Shown one piece after another: positions 1,606 to 10,786 of a stretch of DNA of 11,120 nucleotides. The stretch is from NCBI GenBank assembly GCA_948989975.1, contig CARHSH010000001.1, positions 274,906 to 286,025 of the forward strand. The letters run 5' to 3'. Within the stretch, counting starts at the first letter, position 1. Each line of letters begins with the position of its first letter. The notes under the pieces are model-generated. The model saw nothing but the letters and a program-made list of their open reading frames with translations. It was not told the DNA's origin and made no database searches. Both the position numbers and the translations under genes were made by a program. The DNA comes from an uncultured Lachnospiraceae bacterium (lineage in GTDB: Bacteria; Bacillota; Clostridia; Lachnospirales; Lachnospiraceae).

Positions 1606-4600
1606 ATGAAAAGAATGGTGGCAATGCTGCTTGCCGGATGTCTGGCATTTCAGACATGGATAGGCAATGCAAAACCGGTGTTTGGGGCGCAGACTGCATC
1701 TGGGTCAGTGGATTTTGGCGAAGCGCAGGCTGCATCTGAGTCAGTGGATTCAGGCAAAGCGCAGAGCGTTCTGGAAGTAGGGGTGCGTTCTTCCGCTCAA
1801 TTCCCATTTCAGGGTGACGTAACCGTACAAATCGGACGTGGCAGCGAAGTAGTGGAATCAAAGGATTTAAAATTTGAGGGTTCTAAGGCTTCCTTTGCAG
1901 CGGCAAGGTTTGAAGTGTCAGAAGGGGATTACACAGTTACTGTGAAGTCAGTCCAATTTGCGGACTATACGCAGGATGTGAAAGCGCAAAATGGCTGGAA
2001 AACCAAGATTTTAATTTCTCCATCAAGAATTGAGACGGGCAATGAAGCGGCTCCGGGCTGGATTCGGGTCGGCGACGTCAATCAAGATGGAGTAATTGAC
2101 CAAACGGACATTGACGGCATGATGTCGAAAATCCGTGAAGGCTCTATGGAAGCTGCCTTTGATCTCAATCAAGATGGGAAAGTGGATATGGCAGATTTGC
2201 AGTATATTGTGCAAAGCATAGATGAACATAGGGAGTCCACAGTGGAGAAGCTTGGCATAGTCCAAACGATCCAACAGGCTGAGGGCGCGACTATGGAAGG
2301 AAACGTCAACGACTTTTTAAATGGAACAGGCGCGCTGAAATTAAAGCCTGAAAATGCAAATGCGCAGATTTCAGCGGAAAATCCTGTTGGGATCAACTTT
2401 ACATTAGTGGAAGATACAAAAAAAGCGGTAGAGATTCAAGGAATTGTCGTTCATGCTCCGGTAACAGATGAACAGGGCGTCATTTCCAATGAAATAACGG
2501 AAGGGGAAGTGATTTATACAGACGCGGAAGGAAAAGAAACGTCGGTTCCGTTTTCTGCCGCGGCAAAGCCAAAGCAAAAGAAGAACAGGGCGCTATTTGC
2601 TGCAAATGCGTCAAACCGCGCGGCGTCTATTTCGGCAGACGTCGAGGCTGACGGTTCGCTGGTGTTAGATTTTGGAGGGCAGATTGCAGTAAAGCGGGTA
2701 ACGATAAAAATTACCGGCACCAAAAAGACAGAGCCTTTGGTGAATATTGCAAAGGTTGATTTTGTCAACGATATGGAAAATAGGATACCGGCGCCGCAGA
2801 TGGACATTCCGACGCTTGGAGTTCCACAATCCGTAGATAAAGGATTGATTGTATCTTGGAACCCGCAGAAAAATGTGACGGGGTATGAGGTATATATTTC
2901 AGGTCCTGTGAAAAACCAAGAAGAACACGAAACACAGATTGTGCGCGTGTCAAATATTACGCATACAATATCATCTATCAATGACAAACCGCTTTTAAAC
3001 TTTGAAAAATATAAAATAAAAGCGCGTTCTGTCAATGGAGACTGGAGCAGTCCATGGTCAAATGAAGTAATCGGAGAGCCGAAGCCGACGAAACTTCCGG
3101 CGGCGCCTGATAATGTATCTGCGACAGGCGGGTACCGGACGATAGAAGTGTCATGGAAAGACATGGACGACGCAAACGGATACATGGTTTATTATAAAAA
3201 GACAAAAGATGCGGATACAGAGTACCGTCCGGTGATCGAAGGATTTACACAGGTAAAAGAAGGGACCGGAAAAATAAACGCAACGCATTATGTCATTGCA
3301 GGCTTAGAGGACGAAGTGGAATATTCCGTCTATGTCGTAGGCTGGAATGACCTTGGCTGGGGCAGCCCGTCACTGTCAGCATCCGCGCTTACGAAGTTAA
3401 ATGTCCCGCCACAGCTTCCGAATTATAAACTGTTGAATACTTCAAATGGAGAAGGGGCAGTCAGCGCCCATATCACAGCAGCGTCATATGGCGGGCATGG
3501 CGGCGCAAAGATGGTAGGCAGCGCGTTAGATACAGCGGAAAAAAGCGCGCTTGGCTTAGTGGATAATAACTTTGGATCTTATTGGGAAAAAACAGACTGG
3601 GACGATGGCGTGGCTTATCCGGCAGACAATAAGGGATTTACAGTGACGCTGGATCAGGATTACCAGATGAATTTTATCACATTTGCATCCGCGGACGAAA
3701 AAGCAGCGCTTCAATATGCGCGGATTGGGTATTGGAATACAGCGTCTACAGAAAAACAGAACGTGGGCGCGCGTCTGTATAGAAAACTTGACTCAAGGAA
3801 CAATCCATACTATATTATTAAGCTTGATCAGGCAATCACTGCAAATAAAGTAAATATTTGTCTGGGACGTGACAGTGTTAGGGCATCTATGATGGTAGGT
3901 GAAATCCATTTCCATTATTATGATTCGCTGGAAGATGACATTATGGGCTTATATACAGACGAAATGCACGCTACACTGCGGGCAGACGTAACGGAAAGCG
4001 TCATTCAGGCATTAGAAGCCCGTTTAGAGCTTGTAGACGAGGCAAGCGGTGAAAAACATCCGCTTTACAATGAACTGACTTTAGAATTAAAGACAGCAAG
4101 AGAGATTTTAAATTCAAATCTGGCTTGCGCTTATGAAGTGGAAAACCAGATTACGGGAAGCAAAGACGGGCATCTTGGATTTGGCGGTTTAAATTCATGG
4201 CAGCCGGTTGGGAAAACAGTATATGCCGGTGAAAGTCTGCTTGTTTATGTCGGGCATAATACAAAGAGAACCGGAGATAAAGCAAGCCTGCAACTTGTGT
4301 TTACGCAACAGCACGCAGAAGCGGCAACGCTTTCAAAAGCAGTCAGCTTAAAAGTGGGAAGAAATGAAATTACAGTTCCCCAGATTGTCAGCAAAGAATT
4401 TGAACGCGGCGGACAGTTATATGTAGCATATACTGGAAACAACGCAAACGATAAGTATGCAGTCCGTATAAGCGGCGGAAGCGATATTCCGGTCTTAAGC
4501 GTGTATGGAAAAACACAAGAAGAACGCATGGCGGCGATTTCCGCTTATGTAAAAGAGCTTGAGCAATATGTCGGAACGATTGAAGCGGGACATGCGGCAA

Positions 4601-6837
4601 AACATACAGGGACAAAAAATGTAGATTATCCGTATGACCAGCAAAACTGTATTTTAAATACAACAGATATTATGATGAGGGAAATGATGTATTCCGTACC
4701 TGCAACTCAGGTTTGGGCAGGCATCAAAAACGCAGAAGATAAAGCGGTAAAACTTGACCTTGCCCTAAAAGCAATGGAAAAAACTATGACGCTGTTTTAC
4801 CAGCATAAAGGATTAAGTGATAACGCGGGAACCGTAAGAGGAAATAACGCATGGCCGGCGCAGCACTTGAATATCCGTTATATGAGAATGTTTGCCGGAG
4901 CGTTTATGTATGCGTCAGGCAACCACATTGGCGTAGAATGGGGTTCCACATTATTAGCAAGCGCGCCAAACGACTGGTCAGGATTTGGCTGGGGCGTAGC
5001 GCATGAAATTGGGCATGACATCAATCAGGGCGCATATGCGGTTGCGGAAATCACAAACAATTACTTTGCGCAGCTATTGACAAAAGTTCCCGGAAAGACA
5101 AGATTCACATACAAAAATGTCTACGACAAAGTAACGTCAAATACAATCGGACGCTCTCCGAATGTAGCGACGCAGCTTGCATTGTACTGGCAGCTCCATA
5201 TTGCATATGACAATAATAAGGACGACAGACATATTTACGACAACTATGAAGATCAGTTCAATAACCTGTTCTTTGCAAGAGTGGACACTTATTCAAGGAA
5301 TCCAAAAATGGCTCCGCAGGAAGGATTAACGTTAGACGGAGGCTCAGAACAGAACATTATGCGTCTTGCATGCGCGGCGGCAAATAAAAATATTCTTCCT
5401 TTCTTTGTGCGCTGGGGTATGCAGCCAGATGAGAAAACAACTGCATATGCGGCAAAATATGGAGAGGCGGAAACGAAAGCGCTCTATTATGTCAATGACG
5501 ATGCAAGAGATTACCGCGTGGATCATCCAAATGAGGAAGGGACAATAAAAGATCAGGATGCCGTTACTGCAGCTACAGTAAATGCAGCCGGAAATCAGGC
5601 GGAAATCACGATTGCGACAGATCGCAGCGCAGAGCTTATGCTTGGCTATGAAATCAGCCGCAGTATGATTTCAAACGGTAAAAAATCCACTCAGGTAATT
5701 GGGTTTGCGCCGATTGACACAGCGGACTCTACCGTTTTTGTAGACTCCATTTCATCAATTAACAATCGGGTAATGGAATATGAAGTCCGCGCAGTGGATA
5801 AATACTTGAATTATTCCAATGTAAAAACGGCTGGTTCAGTAAAGATTCAGACAGACGGCGTATTAAATAAATCTGAATGGACAGTGGAGACAACAATGAC
5901 TTCGGCTGACGATACTGTAATCGAGCCGGACGGAGAAGATCCGGACAGCGGATATGAAGCGGAAGATCCGGCAGGCGTAGAAGCGAAAAAGGTCAACAGC
6001 ATTACAAGGATTTTAGACAATGACAGGACAGCGGCTGGAACTTATAACGGAGTAAGCGGCGGCGCCGCGTCAATTACCATAGATATGCGTAAGACAGAAG
6101 AAGTGACGGCATTAAAATATCAGGGTTCTGCAGTTGCTTCGGCGGCAGTTGAAGTCAGCCCAGATGGTGAGAATTGGACAAAAGTGAAAGAGAACGTTTC
6201 TCTTGCCGCAAATGCAGAGCAGACGGTATGGTTTGATTCCGTCAATGAAGAAGACCGCAAGAACTGGATTGGCACTTACGATGCGAAATATGTAAGGCTG
6301 ACGCTGTCGCAGGCAGGCAGTATTTCCATTCAGGAAATCGAAATCTGCGGCCCGACAGGGGATAATTTGGAATTTATGGCAACGGAAGAAGGCCAGCCGG
6401 CAATCGGCGTATTGAAGGAAGACTTTACATATGGCGAAGAAGCGGCGGACGTAATTCCGGCAGGCTCATTAATCTTTACCGGGACATATAAAGGAAATCC
6501 GGCATATAATATAGTTGCGCTCTATGATGCAAATGGCAATGTAATCGGGGAAAAAGATGGAAATGTCTCTGCGGAACAAATAATTTTGGCGGACGTTCCG
6601 GAACAAGGAAATCTGGGTGAAACCTCAGACGGAACTTGGGTATATTATGTAAGGCCGGATCAGTGGAATTTAGAAGCGATAAGGAACACAGGCTTCGTGC
6701 GTGGAGAATTATACCGTGTAGACAATGCCCTGACGTTAGAGGGCGAGCGTATTGTCAGTGATACAAAACTGCTTGAGATTCCTCAGGAATTGCCGGATAT
6801 TACGCTTCAAGGAGGTAAGTATGAAAAATTGGATTAA
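1606..6837 (+). CDS. Large secreted multi-modular zinc metallopeptidase (1743 aa): signal peptide, dockerin, 2x FN3, F5/8 type C (CBM32-like), M60-like/enhancin-type HEXXH catalytic region, second F5/8 type C, C-terminal beta domain; likely mucin/glycoprotein-targeting
   Basis: N-terminal MKRMVAMLLAGCLAFQTWIGNA|KP signal peptide. Two calcium-binding segments GDVNQDGVIDQTDIDGMM and FDLNQDGKVDMADLQYIVQSI form a type-I dockerin. FN3 signatures LIVSWNPQKNVTGYEVYISG and IEVSWKDMDDANGYMVYYKK are present. Discoidin-like segment SALGLVDNNFGSYWEKTDW...GEIHFHYY. Zinc motif GVAHEIGHDINQG (HEIGH at nt 5002-5016) with a downstream Glu (AVAEIT) fits a gluzincin. The HEXXH-plus-CBM32 context is characteristic of M60-like peptidases. 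A second discoidin-like segment ITRILDNDRTAAGTYNGVSGGAASITIDM...IQEIEICGP follows. TAA stop at 6835-6837. The protein call is high confidence; the M60 family assignment is moderate. Confidence 0.88.
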   Translation: MKRMVAMLLAGCLAFQTWIGNAKPVFGAQTASGSVDFGEAQAASESVDSGKAQSVLEVGVRSSAQFPFQGDVTVQIGRGSEVVESKDLKFEGSKASFAAARFEVSEGDYTVTVKSVQFADYTQDVKAQNGWKTKILISPSRIETGNEAAPGWIRVGDVNQDGVIDQTDIDGMMSKIREGSMEAAFDLNQDGKVDMADLQYIVQSIDEHRESTVEKLGIVQTIQQAEGATMEGNVNDFLNGTGALKLKPENANAQISAENPVGINFTLVEDTKKAVEIQGIVVHAPVTDEQGVISNEITEGEVIYTDAEGKETSVPFSAAAKPKQKKNRALFAANASNRAASISADVEADGSLVLDFGGQIAVKRVTIKITGTKKTEPLVNIAKVDFVNDMENRIPAPQMDIPTLGVPQSVDKGLIVSWNPQKNVTGYEVYISGPVKNQEEHETQIVRVSNITHTISSINDKPLLNFEKYKIKARSVNGDWSSPWSNEVIGEPKPTKLPAAPDNVSATGGYRTIEVSWKDMDDANGYMVYYKKTKDADTEYRPVIEGFTQVKEGTGKINATHYVIAGLEDEVEYSVYVVGWNDLGWGSPSLSASALTKLNVPPQLPNYKLLNTSNGEGAVSAHITAASYGGHGGAKMVGSALDTAEKSALGLVDNNFGSYWEKTDWDDGVAYPADNKGFTVTLDQDYQMNFITFASADEKAALQYARIGYWNTASTEKQNVGARLYRKLDSRNNPYYIIKLDQAITANKVNICLGRDSVRASMMVGEIHFHYYDSLEDDIMGLYTDEMHATLRADVTESVIQALEARLELVDEASGEKHPLYNELTLELKTAREILNSNLACAYEVENQITGSKDGHLGFGGLNSWQPVGKTVYAGESLLVYVGHNTKRTGDKASLQLVFTQQHAEAATLSKAVSLKVGRNEITVPQIVSKEFERGGQLYVAYTGNNANDKYAVRISGGSDIPVLSVYGKTQEERMAAISAYVKELEQYVGTIEAGHAAKHTGTKNVDYPYDQQNCILNTTDIMMREMMYSVPATQVWAGIKNAEDKAVKLDLALKAMEKTMTLFYQHKGLSDNAGTVRGNNAWPAQHLNIRYMRMFAGAFMYASGNHIGVEWGSTLLASAPNDWSGFGWGVAHEIGHDINQGAYAVAEITNNYFAQLLTKVPGKTRFTYKNVYDKVTSNTIGRSPNVATQLALYWQLHIAYDNNKDDRHIYDNYEDQFNNLFFARVDTYSRNPKMAPQEGLTLDGGSEQNIMRLACAAANKNILPFFVRWGMQPDEKTTAYAAKYGEAETKALYYVNDDARDYRVDHPNEEGTIKDQDAVTAATVNAAGNQAEITIATDRSAELMLGYEISRSMISNGKKSTQVIGFAPIDTADSTVFVDSISSINNRVMEYEVRAVDKYLNYSNVKTAGSVKIQTDGVLNKSEWTVETTMTSADDTVIEPDGEDPDSGYEAEDPAGVEAKKVNSITRILDNDRTAAGTYNGVSGGAASITIDMRKTEEVTALKYQGSAVASAAVEVSPDGENWTKVKENVSLAANAEQTVWFDSVNEEDRKNWIGTYDAKYVRLTLSQAGSISIQEIEICGPTGDNLEFMATEEGQPAIGVLKEDFTYGEEAADVIPAGSLIFTGTYKGNPAYNIVALYDANGNVIGEKDGNVSAEQIILADVPEQGNLGETSDGTWVYYVRPDQWNLEAIRNTGFVRGELYRVDNALTLEGERIVSDTKLLEIPQELPDITLQGGKYEKLD
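1687..1764 (+). repeat. Intragenic 36-bp tandem repeat (2.2 copies, ~85% identity) encoding AQ(T/A)AS(G/E)SVD(F/S)G(E/K) just after the signal peptide
   Basis: gcgcagactgcatctgggtcagtggattttggcgaa (1687-1722) is followed by gcgcaggctgcatctgagtcagtggattcaggcaaa (1723-1758) and then gcgcag (1759-1764). Confidence 0.8.
2071..2223 (+). other. Type-I dockerin module (duplicated DxNxDGxVDxxD Ca-binding loops plus helices) inside the large protease gene
   Basis: Translation GDVNQDGVIDQTDIDGMMSKIREGSMEAAFDLNQDGKVDMADLQYIVQSI is the canonical dockerin duplicated F-hand pattern. Confidence 0.8.
2806..3400 (+). other. Two tandem fibronectin type III modules within the protease
   Basis: W-x-P/K ... GY-x-VY core motifs and conserved aromatic/hydrophobic spacing (VSWNP...GYEVYI...YKIKARSVNGDWSSPWS; VSWKD...GYMVYY...YSVYVVGWNDLGWGSPS). 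Boundaries are approximate. Confidence 0.6.
3430..3921 (+). other. F5/8 type C (discoidin/CBM32-like) carbohydrate-binding module 1
   Basis: ALGLVDNNFGSYWEK...FTVTLDQDYQMNFITF...GEIHFHYY pattern (A-x-DG/N-x-x-T-x-W and a hydrophobic 'ItiDL' strand). Boundaries are approximate. Confidence 0.55.
4130..5530 (+). other. Putative M60-like (enhancin family) peptidase region including zinc-binding HEIGH (nt 5002-5016)
   Basis: HEXXH with a Glu 11 residues downstream. Flanked by CBM32-like modules, as in characterised M60-like mucin proteases. Extent of the catalytic region is approximate and based on absence of other recognisable modules. Confidence 0.5.
5985..6356 (+). other. F5/8 type C (discoidin/CBM32-like) module 2
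   Basis: VNSITRILDNDRTAAGTYNG...ASITIDMRKTEEVTALKYQG...YVRLTLSQAGSISIQEIEICGP. Boundaries are approximate. Confidence 0.5.
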
Positions 6838-7987
6838 ATGTATGTTATTGACAATGTTTCTTATTGTTGCGGCGCCTTTAGACGCCGCAGCGGCAAGCGA
6901 CAGCCAAATGCTTACAGTAGATAAAAATGACGTTATCCTGACCGTAAACCTTCCAGAAGGAAAAACAGATAAGATTACGTCACTCCGTATAAAACTCCAT
7001 GTTTCGGTTCTTTCAGGAACGATGGAACAGCCATCATTTCAGTTTGAGGAATCATTGAACAGCCGGATTAAAGATTCTCAGATCCGGCAGTTAGAGGACG
7101 GAAGCTACCTTGTGGATTTAATTCTTTCAGGAAAGGAAGATCAGGATATTTTTTCTGGAAATGAATCTGTGAAAACAGGAAAATTATCCCTACACCCTTC
7201 CAGTCAGGAATATCAGGCAAAAGTGGAGTTTGCATCCGGAACCGAAGGCAGTAATGAGCCGGTAATTAGATATGTAGATGCAAGCGGTTTGAATGAAATG
7301 TCACTTCTTTTGGACAGCCCGCAAAGCGTTTTCGTAAAAAATGAGACGGCAGAGCCGCCAGCGGAACAGCCGCCTGCCGGTGATCCGTCGGATCAGACGC
7401 CTGTGGAGGAGGCTTTTGGCAAAAAGCCGAAACTGAAAGCGTCACCTGTGAAAGGTTCAAACAGCATTGTGTTTGAATGGAAGAAAGTCGCGGATGCAGA
7501 TGGCTATGAAATTTACCAATACAATGCAAAATCAAAAACTTATAAGAGACTGAAAAAAATCAACAATCCTTCCGTTACGGCATATTCCAAAAAATTCAAG
7601 TATGCTGCGTCTTATACGTTTAAGTTTCGGGCGTATAAGAATAAAGAGGACGGCTCTAAGTCATATGGGAAATACAGCTCGGCTGTAAAGGTCACAACGT
7701 CGCCAAAAAAGGTAACGAAAGTTACTTTAAAAAATACAGAGGCGAAGAAGTCGACCATTTCATGGAAAAAAGTATCGAATGCAAAAGGATACCAGATTTA
7801 CCGGAGTAAGAAAAAAGGCGGAACCTATAAACTGCTTAAAACAATCAAAAAGGGAAAAACGACAAAGTGGGCAGTAAACAAGCCGAAAAAAGGCGGGGTA
7901 TACTATTACAAAGTCAGGGCTTATGTAAAGAATGCGAAGGGAAAACGCATTGACGGTAAGTTCAGTTCCGTAATATCTTTAAAATAG
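6821..7987 (+). CDS. Secreted partner protein (388 aa): signal peptide, ~170-aa beta-rich N-terminal domain of unknown fold (cohesin-like candidate), acidic/Pro linker, two lysine-rich FN3-like C-terminal repeats; translationally coupled to the protease gene
   Basis: Strong RBS AGGAGGT (6810-6816) 4 nt before ATG 6821. The ATG lies 17 nt inside the upstream gene (its stop is 6835-6837). The track's ORF start at 6752 is only open frame upstream of the real start. MKNWIKCMLLTMFLIVAAPLDAAAAS is a signal peptide. Repeats ...FEWKKVADADGYEIYQYNAKSKTYKRLKKI...YTFKFRAY and ...ISWKKVSNAKGYQIYRSKKKGGTYKLLKTI...YYYKVRAY are present. TAG stop at 7985-7987. Confidence 0.85.
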   Translation: MKNWIKCMLLTMFLIVAAPLDAAAASDSQMLTVDKNDVILTVNLPEGKTDKITSLRIKLHVSVLSGTMEQPSFQFEESLNSRIKDSQIRQLEDGSYLVDLILSGKEDQDIFSGNESVKTGKLSLHPSSQEYQAKVEFASGTEGSNEPVIRYVDASGLNEMSLLLDSPQSVFVKNETAEPPAEQPPAGDPSDQTPVEEAFGKKPKLKASPVKGSNSIVFEWKKVADADGYEIYQYNAKSKTYKRLKKINNPSVTAYSKKFKYAASYTFKFRAYKNKEDGSKSYGKYSSAVKVTTSPKKVTKVTLKNTEAKKSTISWKKVSNAKGYQIYRSKKKGGTYKLLKTIKKGKTTKWAVNKPKKGGVYYYKVRAYVKNAKGKRIDGKFSSVISLK

Positions 7988-8123: not shown

Positions 8124-8220
8124 GAGGTTATTGGTAAACTTAAGATAATAGAATGACTGCGTTCCATTAGCGAAAGGTATGCCATCAGATTGGATTCTAA
8201 AAAGTGAAAGGGGAAGAGGA

Positions 8221-9927
8221 ATGTTAAAATTCAACAATGAAAGAATCGAAAAAAGACTTACGAAATCATTTGTTATGGTTTCAGCGATTTCGGCAATCGC
8301 GGCAATCGTAGGACTGATTGCAATGTTGGTTCTTGCAAGCAGATATTCTTATGCGTTAAAGAATTATGGATTTGCGCAAGGAGATATCGGACAGGCGTTG
8401 TTTGCATTTGCAGATACAAGGTCTTCACTGCGCGCAGCGATTGGCTATGACGATGCGGATGCAATCCAAAACGTAGTAGAGCAGCATAAAGAAATGAAAG
8501 CAACGTTTGAAGAATACTTTGCTAAAGTAGAAGACACTATCGTATCGAAAGACGGCAGGGAGACTTATGATGAAATTGTTTCGGAATTGGATGCTTACTG
8601 GGAGATGGATACACAGATTTTAGAGCTTGGAGCGACGACAGACAGGGAACTTTGTAAACAGGCTCAGGACATTGCGTTAAATGAGTTGGCGGGAAAATAC
8701 AACAGTATTTATGAAAAATTAGAAGGGCTGTTAACTGTAAAGATAAATGAAGGAAACAGCCTTTCTACGACCCTTCGTATATTGTCTATTGTATTAGCGG
8801 CTTTTATAATTGTAGTGATTGTGTCGGCTATGCTGGTTTCAACAAAGATGGGCAAGGGAATTGCAAAGGGAATTGCAAAACCATTGGCTGATCTGGGCCA
8901 ACGCTTAAAAGCTCTCGGCGGTGGAGATTTTTCATCTCCGTTTCCGGAAGTTGAAGCGGACGATGAAGTTGCGGACATGGTTCAGGATGCAAGGGATATG
9001 TCAGATAAGTTGAATGCGATTATTGATGATCTAGGCCTTCTTTTGGGTGAAATGTCGACAGGGAATTATGCAGTCAGGACTGCAATACCGGAACAGTACA
9101 CCGGGGAGTTTGCAAAGATGCTTCAGGCTATGCGGGATTTAAGAAATCAAATGACGGCTACGCTCCGTTCCATCGGGGAAGCATCTAATCAGGTTTCCGC
9201 AGGCTCCGGAAATTTAGCAGAGTCGGCGCAGGGACTTGCAGAAGGAGCAGTAGAGCAGGCAGGCGCAGTTCAGGAGCTTCAGGCGACGATTATCAGCATT
9301 ACGGAAGCAATGCAAAGAAGCGCGGAAGATGCAGGGGATTCCTATACCCAGACACAAAAGTGCGCAGAAGAAGCGGATAACAGCCGGGAAGGCATGAACA
9401 CAGTTGTAGAAGCAATGAAGAAAATTGACGACACGTCCACGAAAATCGGAAATATTATTTCGGAAATTGAATCAATCGCTTCCCAGACCAATCTTCTGTC
9501 ATTGAATGCATCCATTGAAGCGGCAAGAGCAGGCGAGGCAGGCCGCGGCTTTGCAGTTGTGGCGGATCAGATCCGTCAGCTTGCAGAGCAGAGCGCAAAA
9601 GCGGCAGTGGATACAAGAGAGCTGATTGAAGGCTCCCTTCAGGAAATTGAGGGTGGAAACCGCGCGGTGGAAAGCGCATCTAGCTCGATTGGAATTGTTG
9701 TAGACGGGATCAAGCAGATTGCAGACGTTTCTAAGCAGTTAAGCATTATGATCGGAGATCAGAGTGAGACGATGCGCCAGGCTGAGCAGGGCGTTTCCCA
9801 GATTTCGGACGTTGTGCAGAATAACTCAGCGGCGGCTCAGGAGACGTCAGCGACCAGTGAGGAATTATCGGCTCAGGCGACGACGCTCGACGATTTAGTA
9901 GGCCAGTTCACTTTTTTAGATGAATAA
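8221..9927 (+). CDS. Methyl-accepting chemotaxis protein (TM1, ~150-aa extracellular helical sensor likely 4HB-type, TM2, HAMP, MCP signalling domain)
   Basis: The preferred start ATG 8221 ([13 protein letters not shown]...) is preceded by AAAGGGGAAGAGGA; the track's 8179 start has a poorer RBS. TM helices [22 protein letters not shown] and [24 protein letters not shown] region [18 protein letters not shown]. Highly conserved MCP core [35 protein letters not shown]. Stop TAA at 9925-9927. Confidence 0.9.
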
Positions 9928-10066: not shown

Positions 10067-10786
10067 ATGGATAAATTGAAAAATTGGTTTAGGAAGATAA
10101 AGTTAGATACAGATAAGAAAAATAGCAGTGCAGGTGATCAGATGAAAAAATTATTGCTGGCGGCAGTATTAGTTTTAATTTGCGTTTTTTCAATAAGAAG
10201 CTGCGCAGTAAAAGATTATGAGAATAAGGAATTGCAAAATAAGCTGGAAGAAATGGAACGTAAGCGGGTAGCGGTAGATTTGATTCAGGAAGAAGTAAAA
10301 AAGATTTCAGAATATAGCGCATATGAGATTAATTATACGACGATGTTGCATTTTTCTGACCAAAATGAAATCAAGGGATTTAAAATCCCGCTGACCGGAA
10401 ATAATTTCATTGCAACGATTGACGGGAAAATGAAAATTGGAATTAATGGGGAAAATGTTTCGTTTAAGGAAATAACGGATTCGGAAGGGAAAGTGACAAA
10501 GATAGAACTGACGGTTCCGCATTCGGAGATTCTGGATAACTATACAATACAGGATTCTTTAGAAGTCTATGATGAGAAAAATAATATTTTTAATCCGGTA
10601 AAAGTATCGGATTATACGAAATTGATCGTTGAGGCAGAGGAGAAAGAGAAGAAAAAAGCGTTGGAAAGCGATATTATAGAACAATCAGATGAAGCGGCGC
10701 ATTATTTGCTGACAACTTATTTTCAGGCGGTATATGGGCAAGAGACAGAAGTAAGGTATCAGTATCTTGAGGAGAAAGAGGAATAA
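10067..10786 (+). CDS. Hypothetical membrane-anchored protein (K-rich cytoplasmic tail, one TM helix, coiled-coil segment, beta-rich extracytoplasmic domain, acidic C-terminus); possibly DUF4230-like but not verifiable here
   Basis: RBS AAGGAG (10051-10056) 10 nt before ATG 10067. MDKLKNWFRKIKLDTDKKN then TM KKLLLAAVLVLICVFSI (an alternative internal start ATG 10142 has weaker RBS AGGTGA). ELQNKLEEMERKRVAVDLIQEEVKK is a coiled coil. Stop TAA at 10784-10786. Confidence 0.7.
   Translation: MDKLKNWFRKIKLDTDKKNSSAGDQMKKLLLAAVLVLICVFSIRSCAVKDYENKELQNKLEEMERKRVAVDLIQEEVKKISEYSAYEINYTTMLHFSDQNEIKGFKIPLTGNNFIATIDGKMKIGINGENVSFKEITDSEGKVTKIELTVPHSEILDNYTIQDSLEVYDEKNNIFNPVKVSDYTKLIVEAEEKEKKKALESDIIEQSDEAAHYLLTTYFQAVYGQETEVRYQYLEEKEE

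Follow-up and report, generated by a model that had tools for sequence, protein, structure and literature searches.

Anchoring scaffoldins, which hold dockerin-bearing enzymes on the cell, are attached by elements that differ from one organism to another: SLH repeats in SdbA and OlpB of C. thermocellum, an LPXTG motif in ScaE of Ruminococcus and cSca5 of Limousia, and a C-terminal transmembrane (TM) helix in the scaffoldins of the R. difficilis/R. bromii type. The "mucinolysome" of Limousia displays mucin-degrading enzymes through such an LPXTG-anchored scaffoldin. Other surface proteins are retained non-covalently, as illustrated by the GW modules (SH3 type 8; Listeria InlB and Ami, staphylococcal Atl repeats), which are basic and for which binding to lipoteichoic acid and/or peptidoglycan has been reported (PMC5817068). 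How gut Lachnospiraceae retain their surface enzymes is little known, and many have neither sortase signals nor SLH or choline-binding repeats. Here, we analyze a stretch of 11,120 nucleotides from an uncultured Lachnospiraceae bacterium (GenBank assembly GCA_948989975.1, contig CARHSH010000001.1, positions 274,906 to 286,025 of the forward strand), hereafter the window, the numbering of which is used throughout. It is 99.7% identical to a contig of the mouse-gut Lachnospiraceae metagenome-assembled genome (MAG) MGBC163558, and it harbors a two-gene cassette encoding an M60-like O-glycopeptidase (1606-6837, + strand) and a small secreted adaptor (6821-7987, + strand). Judging from sequence comparisons, we propose that the lysine-rich FN3 tail of the adaptor may operate as an electrostatic anchor holding the resulting mucinase complex on the cell surface, a reading to which we give a probability of about 0.5.

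The adaptor gene is a complete open reading frame (ORF), with 388 codons before the stop. Its ATG overlaps the 3' end and stop of the peptidase gene by 17 nucleotides, and its strong Shine-Dalgarno sequence AAGGAGG (6809-6815, +), located 6 nucleotides 5' of the ATG, lies within the peptidase gene. The 388-residue product comprises, in that order and all on the + strand, a signal peptide (residues 1-26; 6821-6898) with an A-x-A type cleavage region (DAAAA/S, from the sequence); a divergent domain of cohesin fold (residues 27-177; 6899-7351), which is acidic (isoelectric point, pI, 4.6) and presumed to be the receptor for the peptidase dockerin; a Pro/acidic linker (residues 178-203; 7352-7429); a first cationic FN3 repeat (residues 204-296; 7430-7708; net charge +16, 21.5% Lys); and a second one (residues 297-388 plus the stop codon; 7709-7987; net charge +27, 28% Lys), which ends at the C-terminus. 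Apart from the signal peptide, the linker is the only disordered stretch of the AlphaFold model of the adaptor (predicted local distance difference test, pLDDT, below 50 at residues 177-194). The pLDDT is also low at residues 17-27, and the signal-peptide pattern is kept in the homologues. Neither the adaptor nor the peptidase is matched or named by NCBIfam.

The succession signal peptide, cohesin, linker, FN3 repeats and C-terminus is that of the anchoring scaffoldins, and it thus places the FN3 tail in the anchor slot. Like these scaffoldins, the adaptor appears as a secreted protein with a cohesin at its outer end, a Pro/Thr-rich linker and a candidate C-terminal attachment element, which would dock a dockerin-bearing enzyme. 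Unlike them, it possesses a single cohesin that is undetectable by sequence, it is encoded in a two-gene cassette with one enzyme, and its candidate attachment element is a polycationic FN3 tandem instead of SLH repeats, an LPXTG motif or a TM helix. None of these three elements occurs in the adaptor or in any of its 96 homologues, and it is only with the FN3 tail as an anchor that the adaptor would work as such a scaffoldin. By analogy, we propose that the polycationic tandem could substitute for them. The linker of the adaptor homologues is 0-116 residues long and rich in P, T and S. In some homologues it is replaced by an extra domain between the cohesin and the FN3 repeats, namely Big_2 in one case and a beta-rich segment of ~70 residues, without assigned family, in another, showing that the linker slot accepts whole domains.

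An earlier note on this DNA had described the end of the adaptor as two related, FN3-like and extremely lysine-rich repeats that follow an acidic/Pro linker and are devoid of LPXTG, SLH, LysM and choline-binding motifs, and each element of this description holds. The two repeats (204-296 versus 297-388) share 40% identity over 73 residues (BLASTP, E 1e-10), and the motifs quoted in the note are present in pairs (WKKVADADGYEIYQ / WKKVSNAKGYQIYR; YKRLKKI / YKLLKTI; YTFKFRAY / YYYKVRAY), together with the Lys-rich runs RSKKKGGTYKLLKTIKKGKTTKW and NKPKKGG and, in the linker (residues 178-197), the sequence EPPAEQPPAGDPSDQTPVEE. The Pfam family fn3 (PF00041, clan E-set) matches the whole adaptor in two stretches with 32.6 bits for a cut-off of 25 (E 9.7e-8), while each repeat taken singly falls slightly under the cut-off (23.7 and 18.6 bits). 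In the predicted structure, the repeats adopt the seven-stranded beta-sandwich of ~90 residues that characterizes the FN3 fold, and the structures that match this fold best are FN3 tandems, among them 1fnh, the heparin-binding segment of fibronectin, a likeness of fold only. The C-terminal 185 residues comprise 46 Lys (24.9%), 5 Arg, 4 Asp and 4 Glu, for a net charge of +43 and a pI of 10.30, as expected from the strongly cationic character attributed to them. No Pfam match at E<=1 was found in the adaptor for LPXTG, SLH, LysM, SH3b/GW or choline-binding motifs (CW_binding_1/2), nor for WxL, SPOR or PG_binding.

The FN3 subtype is ordinary, and its polycationic state is rare and conserved. Using repeat 2 as the query against 1.84 billion cluster representatives, we retrieved 16,515 of them at E<=1e-3, giant proteins carrying up to 42 copies. 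The 1,657 repeats of the top 150 matches have a median charge of 0, and 1.0% of them reach +16 and 0.06% reach +26. Hence, the idea of the earlier note that this repeat type is an uncharacterized wall-binding module does not stand for the repeat type, which is very common and normally neutral, and it has to be narrowed to the polycationic C-terminal state. The ordinary bacterial FN3 domains (Pfam fn3 / GH85_C; 3mpc from C. thermocellum, 1k85 from B. circulans chitinase A1) are also typically neutral, unlike the present ones (+16/+26 per 90 residues). In the adaptor family, the FN3 region, comprising two, three or four repeats the last of which ends a few residues from the C-terminus, is strongly positive in all 96 aligned homologues (net charge +27 to +55; K 19%, R 4.5%), and the cohesin domain averages -7 (n=96). 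As these homologues are only 29-58% identical to the query, the conservation of this charge is not a matter of chance.

We clustered the domains that follow the FN3 arrays and scanned their representatives against Pfam. Cationic arrays are followed by Glucosaminidase (17 proteins), GH25 muramidase (8), NlpC/P60 (7) or M15 peptidase (4) domains, whereas CUB, Fib_succ_major or BspA-type leucine-rich repeat (LRR) tails come after arrays that are neutral or acidic. The median maximum charge of the arrays is +14 before peptidoglycan hydrolases versus +3.8 before other domains (Mann-Whitney p 5.5e-9) and, when only the proteins with 4-13 repeats are considered as a guard against ascertainment bias, the odds ratio is 7.8 (p 3e-4), both p-values being indicative only. 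Strongly cationic arrays also occur at the C-terminus, after N-terminal Amidase_3, GH25 and Glucosaminidase domains, and altogether the peptidoglycan hydrolases linked to polycationic arrays span five catalytic types. Compared with neutral repeats, the cationic ones are enriched in Lys/Arg at certain alignment columns only, namely the WKK that comes after strand B, the C' strand, and the C-C', C'-E and E-F loops. These columns are identical in the adaptor family and in the hydrolase-linked arrays, which points to one shared cationic variant rather than to a random drift in composition.

The cationic version of the repeat was also found at the extreme C-termini of varied surface proteins. We collected 51 further proteins from species-representative genomes, which belong to the Lachnospiraceae, Acutalibacteraceae, Oscillospiraceae and Anaerovoracaceae and, in two cases, to the Bacillaceae. 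In about 40 of the 51, the protein stops 0-5 residues past the final repeat, and no other repeat is as cationic as this one (+16 to +33). The charge climbs towards the C-terminus in 82% of the C-terminal arrays. Their heads are unrelated: BspA-type LRR (7), Amidase_3 (4), Glucosaminidase (3), CAP (3), Flg_new (3), GH25 (2), GH26 (2), papain-like C1 protease (2), S8 subtilase, YkuD, 3D and FMN-binding. The polycationic FN3 tandem would thus behave like an address tag, the varied cargo sharing only a need for surface retention, and such a variety is hard to square with a substrate-binding role such as the binding of mucin. A separate conserved family of ~580-650 residues (including a member from Roseburia faecis JCM 17581), which combines an N-terminal domain without known family with Fn3_assoc/CHB_HEX_C and ends in FN3 repeats, displays a gradient like that of the adaptor family, its FN3 charge rising from about -3 to +25 at the C-terminus.

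These comparisons bear on a first alternative, according to which the FN3 domains are a rigid spacer or a solubility module, the complex being either released or held by something encoded elsewhere. FN3 modules of bacterial glycoside hydrolases are generally seen as linkers, and the present subtype is for the most part a neutral, multi-copy stalk of giant proteins (up to 42 repeats). We nevertheless regard this alternative as unlikely for the following reasons. First, the tandem stands behind the functional domain at the extreme C-terminus, where nothing is left to be spaced. Second, its charge lies at the extreme of the subtype (top 1% to 0.06%) and has been conserved down to 29-58% sequence identity. 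Third, the position-specific Lys enrichment is common to the adaptor and to the arrays of wall hydrolases. Fourth, the charge climbs towards the C-terminus.

The GH26 mannanases may point to the charge itself as the relevant property. Among their Lachnospiraceae orthologues, which share 53-79% identity with the query over the common region, three alternative C-terminal ends occur: an FN3 tandem (+27 to +55 over the last 200 residues), a Big_2 tandem (+23 to +29) or an LRR region whose tail is K-rich (+31 to +44). With few exceptions, the last 200 residues of these enzymes are polycationic (+11 to +55, for the most part +21 or above), and one distant homologue, whose 40% identity covers a quarter of the query, possesses an SLH domain. 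That orthologous enzymes build a cationic end from FN3, Big_2 or LRR suggests that the charge, and not the FN3 fold, may be the selected or functional property. Almost all of the closest 120 homologues of the glucosaminidase catalytic domain are devoid of FN3, in the place of which they carry CW_binding_1, SLH, choline-binding or ChW modules. With regard to the mannanases, the RiGH26 enzyme of Roseburia intestinalis has been located on the cell surface by immunofluorescence (La Rosa et al. 2019, PMC6385246). It is thus a surface enzyme of Lachnospiraceae, and orthologous GH26 enzymes end in cationic FN3 or Big_2 tandems; the attachment role put forward for it is, however, a proposal only (PMC6385246), and RiGH26 does not figure among our GH26 matches, from which its primer-encoded peptides are absent. 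For the tail, the GW repeats offer the closest functional parallel, as they too are strongly basic C-terminal tandem repeats of ~80-90 residues found on both surface proteins and peptidoglycan hydrolases. They differ in having an SH3-like instead of an FN3 fold, with no sequence relationship, and the binding is only predicted in the case of the FN3 module.

We now turn to the partner of the adaptor. The peptidase is a secreted protein of 1743 residues with a net charge of -78 and a pI of 4.8, which comprises a dockerin, FN3 domains, an M60 catalytic domain and an F5/8 type C domain, as indicated by Pfam (Peptidase_M60, PF13402, 39.6 bits for a cut-off of 25.8; Dockerin_1, fn3 and F5_F8_type_C). 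Its catalytic region matches ZmpB of C. perfringens (5kdn, E 9.6e-22), and its closest solved relatives further include ZmpC and ZmpA of this species and the BcM60 O-glycopeptidases. These characterized relatives, together with the zinc-binding motif HEIGH of the M60 domain (residue 1133; 5002-5016, +), identify it as an M60-like/enhancin O-glycopeptidase. Near its N-terminus, residues 156-202 (2071-2211, +) form a type I dockerin (Dockerin_1, 29.3 bits for a cut-off of 22.9) with the two expected Ca-binding loops, DVNQDGVIDQTD (157-168) and DLNQDGKVDMAD (186-197), and a dockerin-type loop occurs at the equivalent position in 25 of the 27 peptidase orthologues.

The assignment of the other half of the pair is based on structure, as no match to a cohesin was obtained by sequence. 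No Pfam family matches residues 27-177 of the adaptor at E<=1, a profile of 30 homologues of this N-terminal domain retrieved no cohesin from the PDB at E<=10, and the search of the PDB with the whole adaptor yielded chance matches only, with no cohesin among them. In the AlphaFold model, however, these residues form a nine-stranded jelly-roll beta-sandwich of ~140 residues that superposes on solved cohesins. The genomic context, for its part, ties the two genes together. We examined 29 loci from species-representative genomes encoding a full-length adaptor homologue; in 28 of them an ORF for a peptidase with the HExGH motif lies directly upstream, its end being -16 to +418 nucleotides from the adaptor start, and the 29th locus is cut by the contig end. 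A peptidase gene is also directly upstream of the adaptor in five further contigs with otherwise unrelated flanks. Because the fold is predicted to be that of a cohesin and the two genes overlap and strictly co-occur, we infer that the N-terminal head of the adaptor probably binds the peptidase dockerin. As the genes travel together and the dockerin is kept, the adaptor is best read as a one-cohesin partner of the peptidase, and its role as the adaptor of a dockerin-bearing O-glycopeptidase, understood here as one half of a cohesin-dockerin pair, appears to be likely. Such a pair, which the earlier note had not recognized, would explain in what way the two proteins are partners, and it would give a concrete mechanism to the idea of a tether put forward in that note, the adaptor being an analogue of anchoring scaffoldins. 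The cassette can be compared with the Zmp M60 proteins and the cohesin-dockerin glycosidases of C. perfringens, which are also non-cellulosomal pairs joining mucin- or glycan-active enzymes, and with NagJ of this organism (2w1n), where a cohesin likewise stands beside an FN3 domain in a double module. The difference is that here the cohesin does not belong to another enzyme; it sits on a small adaptor of its own, which ends in a cationic tail.

Given the nature of this enzyme, the cationic tandem could be thought to target host polyanions (sialylated or sulfated mucin O-glycans, glycosaminoglycans), thereby bringing the mucinase to its substrate in the manner of the heparin-binding FN3 modules of fibronectin. 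Polycationic surfaces generally bind sulfated glycans, the partner belongs to the M60 O-glycopeptidases and has the mucinases ZmpB and ZmpC among its relatives, the tail is carried by gut Lachnospiraceae, in many cases represented by mouse gut MAGs, and the top fold matches include 1fnh, though for the fold only. We consider this possibility as quite unlikely, since the same tail is borne by peptidoglycan amidases, muramidases, glucosaminidases, an L,D-transpeptidase, the plant-mannan GH26 enzymes and FMN-binding proteins, which have no link with mucin, and since the peptidase already has its own glycan-binding F5/8 type C domain. Furthermore, heparin-binding sites usually favor Arg, whereas the Lys:Arg ratio of the tail is 46:5. 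As for another acidic partner of the tandem, be it the peptidase itself, with the effect of strengthening the complex, extracellular DNA or the biofilm matrix, the charges are indeed complementary (net -78 and pI 4.8 for the peptidase and pI 4.6 for the cohesin, facing +43 for the tail), but this is very improbable because the tail is also found on many single-protein cargos without an adjacent gene for an acidic partner, and because the cohesin-dockerin pair already explains the formation of the complex.

To return to the anchoring role of the FN3 tail, we looked for another anchor that could explain a surface display. LPXTG is absent from the adaptor, from the peptidase and from all 27 peptidase orthologues, and no TM, SLH, LysM, SH3b or CWB module was found in the adaptor, the peptidase or their orthologues. 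The FN3 domains are thus probably the only plausible surface holder of the adaptor-peptidase complex. We propose the following mechanism. Both proteins, as their signal peptides suggest, would be exported by the Sec pathway. The cohesin-fold head of the adaptor would then bind the type I dockerin that the peptidase carries close to its N-terminus, the flexible Pro/Thr/acidic linker acting as a spacer. In turn, the two polycationic FN3 domains (+43 over 185 residues) would stick non-covalently, through multivalent electrostatic contacts, to the anionic polymers of the envelope, the candidate ligands being teichoic-acid-like polymers, acidic wall polysaccharide and peptidoglycan, with the membrane as a further candidate. 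The mucinase would thereby be retained at the cell surface. An electrostatic tether had been put forward in the earlier note, and among the readings considered here it is the best supported; the comparative evidence favors the retention at the envelope that it implied, but the repeat type as such is not new.

Several points weigh against this anchoring role of the FN3 tail. First, the cohesin assignment comes from the predicted fold, without a match to the cohesin families by sequence. Second, the same FN3 subtype includes many neutral or acidic arrays, indicating that the FN3 fold itself is a generic spacer. Third, the p-values given above overstate the association with peptidoglycan hydrolases, the query being cationic and related proteins being counted as independent. 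Fourth, we found no study of FN3 as a wall-binding module in the literature that we searched, nor relevant literature on the "SaeA" Fn3 families, and FN3 is missing from the 2018 catalogue of wall-attachment domains (PMC5817068). Fifth, the searches for the module as the wall-binding domain of phage endolysins lend no support and are uninformative either way: the INPHARED phages gave four weak, unannotated matches, and IMG/VR gave five loci, three of which, when inspected closely, turned out to encode secreted bacterial-type proteins (GLUG, multi-FN3, GH25). Sixth, the signal peptide of the peptidase (1606-1686, +) contains a lipobox-like LAGC sequence at residues 9-12, common in the orthologues, which could in principle lipid-anchor the peptidase itself. 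We tend to reject a lipoprotein signal as unlikely, since the cysteine is missing in 5 of the 27 orthologues, the last basic residue is only 8 residues before it, and the hydrophobic core runs past it to an AxA-type site. Judged from these features, the signal is probably of the signal peptidase I type.

If the anchoring role of the FN3 tail is true, its consequences extend beyond the present cassette. It would account for the way in which many proteins of diverse kinds, among them autolysins, BspA-type adhesins, mannanases and proteases, are displayed at the surface, extend the known set of Gram-positive wall-binding domains by one module, and provide a portable display tag for commensal Clostridia. 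It would also define a very small cohesin-dockerin system in which a single adaptor places a single enzyme, a mucin O-glycopeptidase, on the cell surface of mouse-gut commensals, a matter of relevance to mucus foraging. Should experiments confirm it, the polycationic FN3 tail would represent a hitherto undescribed type of anchor in the cell wall. We also tentatively put forward a broader proposal, in which we have somewhat less than even confidence, that polycationic C-terminal beta-sandwich tandems (FN3, Big_2) may be a widespread and unrecognized tag for non-covalent surface retention in Lachnospiraceae and related Clostridia. Peptidoglycan hydrolases, adhesins, glycanases and proteases would have such a tag in common, and the cassette would be a minimal two-gene "mucinolysome" operating without sortase, SLH or membrane helix.

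Regarding the surroundings of the cassette, the genes for tRNA-Tyr(GTA) (1263-1346, +) and tRNA-Leu(TAA) (1377-1462, +) lie between a truncated gene of the alpha-amylase family (146-1114) and the peptidase gene. They are followed by a strong hairpin resembling an intrinsic terminator (1472-1499), and its location 5' of the peptidase gene indicates that a separate transcription unit probably begins with the peptidase/adaptor pair. Downstream, the window encodes a methyl-accepting chemotaxis protein with 4HB_MCP, HAMP and MCPsignal domains (8179-9927, +) and a DUF4230 protein with a hydrophobic N-terminal segment (10067-10786, +), and neither gene is kept beside the cassette in other genomes. 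In the N-terminal region of the peptidase, a 36-nucleotide tandem repeat (1687-1765, +; 2.2 copies, 86% match) encodes a peptide duplicated directly after the signal peptide (AQTASGSVDFGE / AQAASESVDSGK). At the other end of this protein, the last ~25 residues (about 6760-6834), which reach the overlap with the adaptor gene, contain a motif kept across the orthologues, (E)RIVSDT..I.IP..LPDITL.G, which could form the strand that closes the last domain or else touch the adaptor at a second site.

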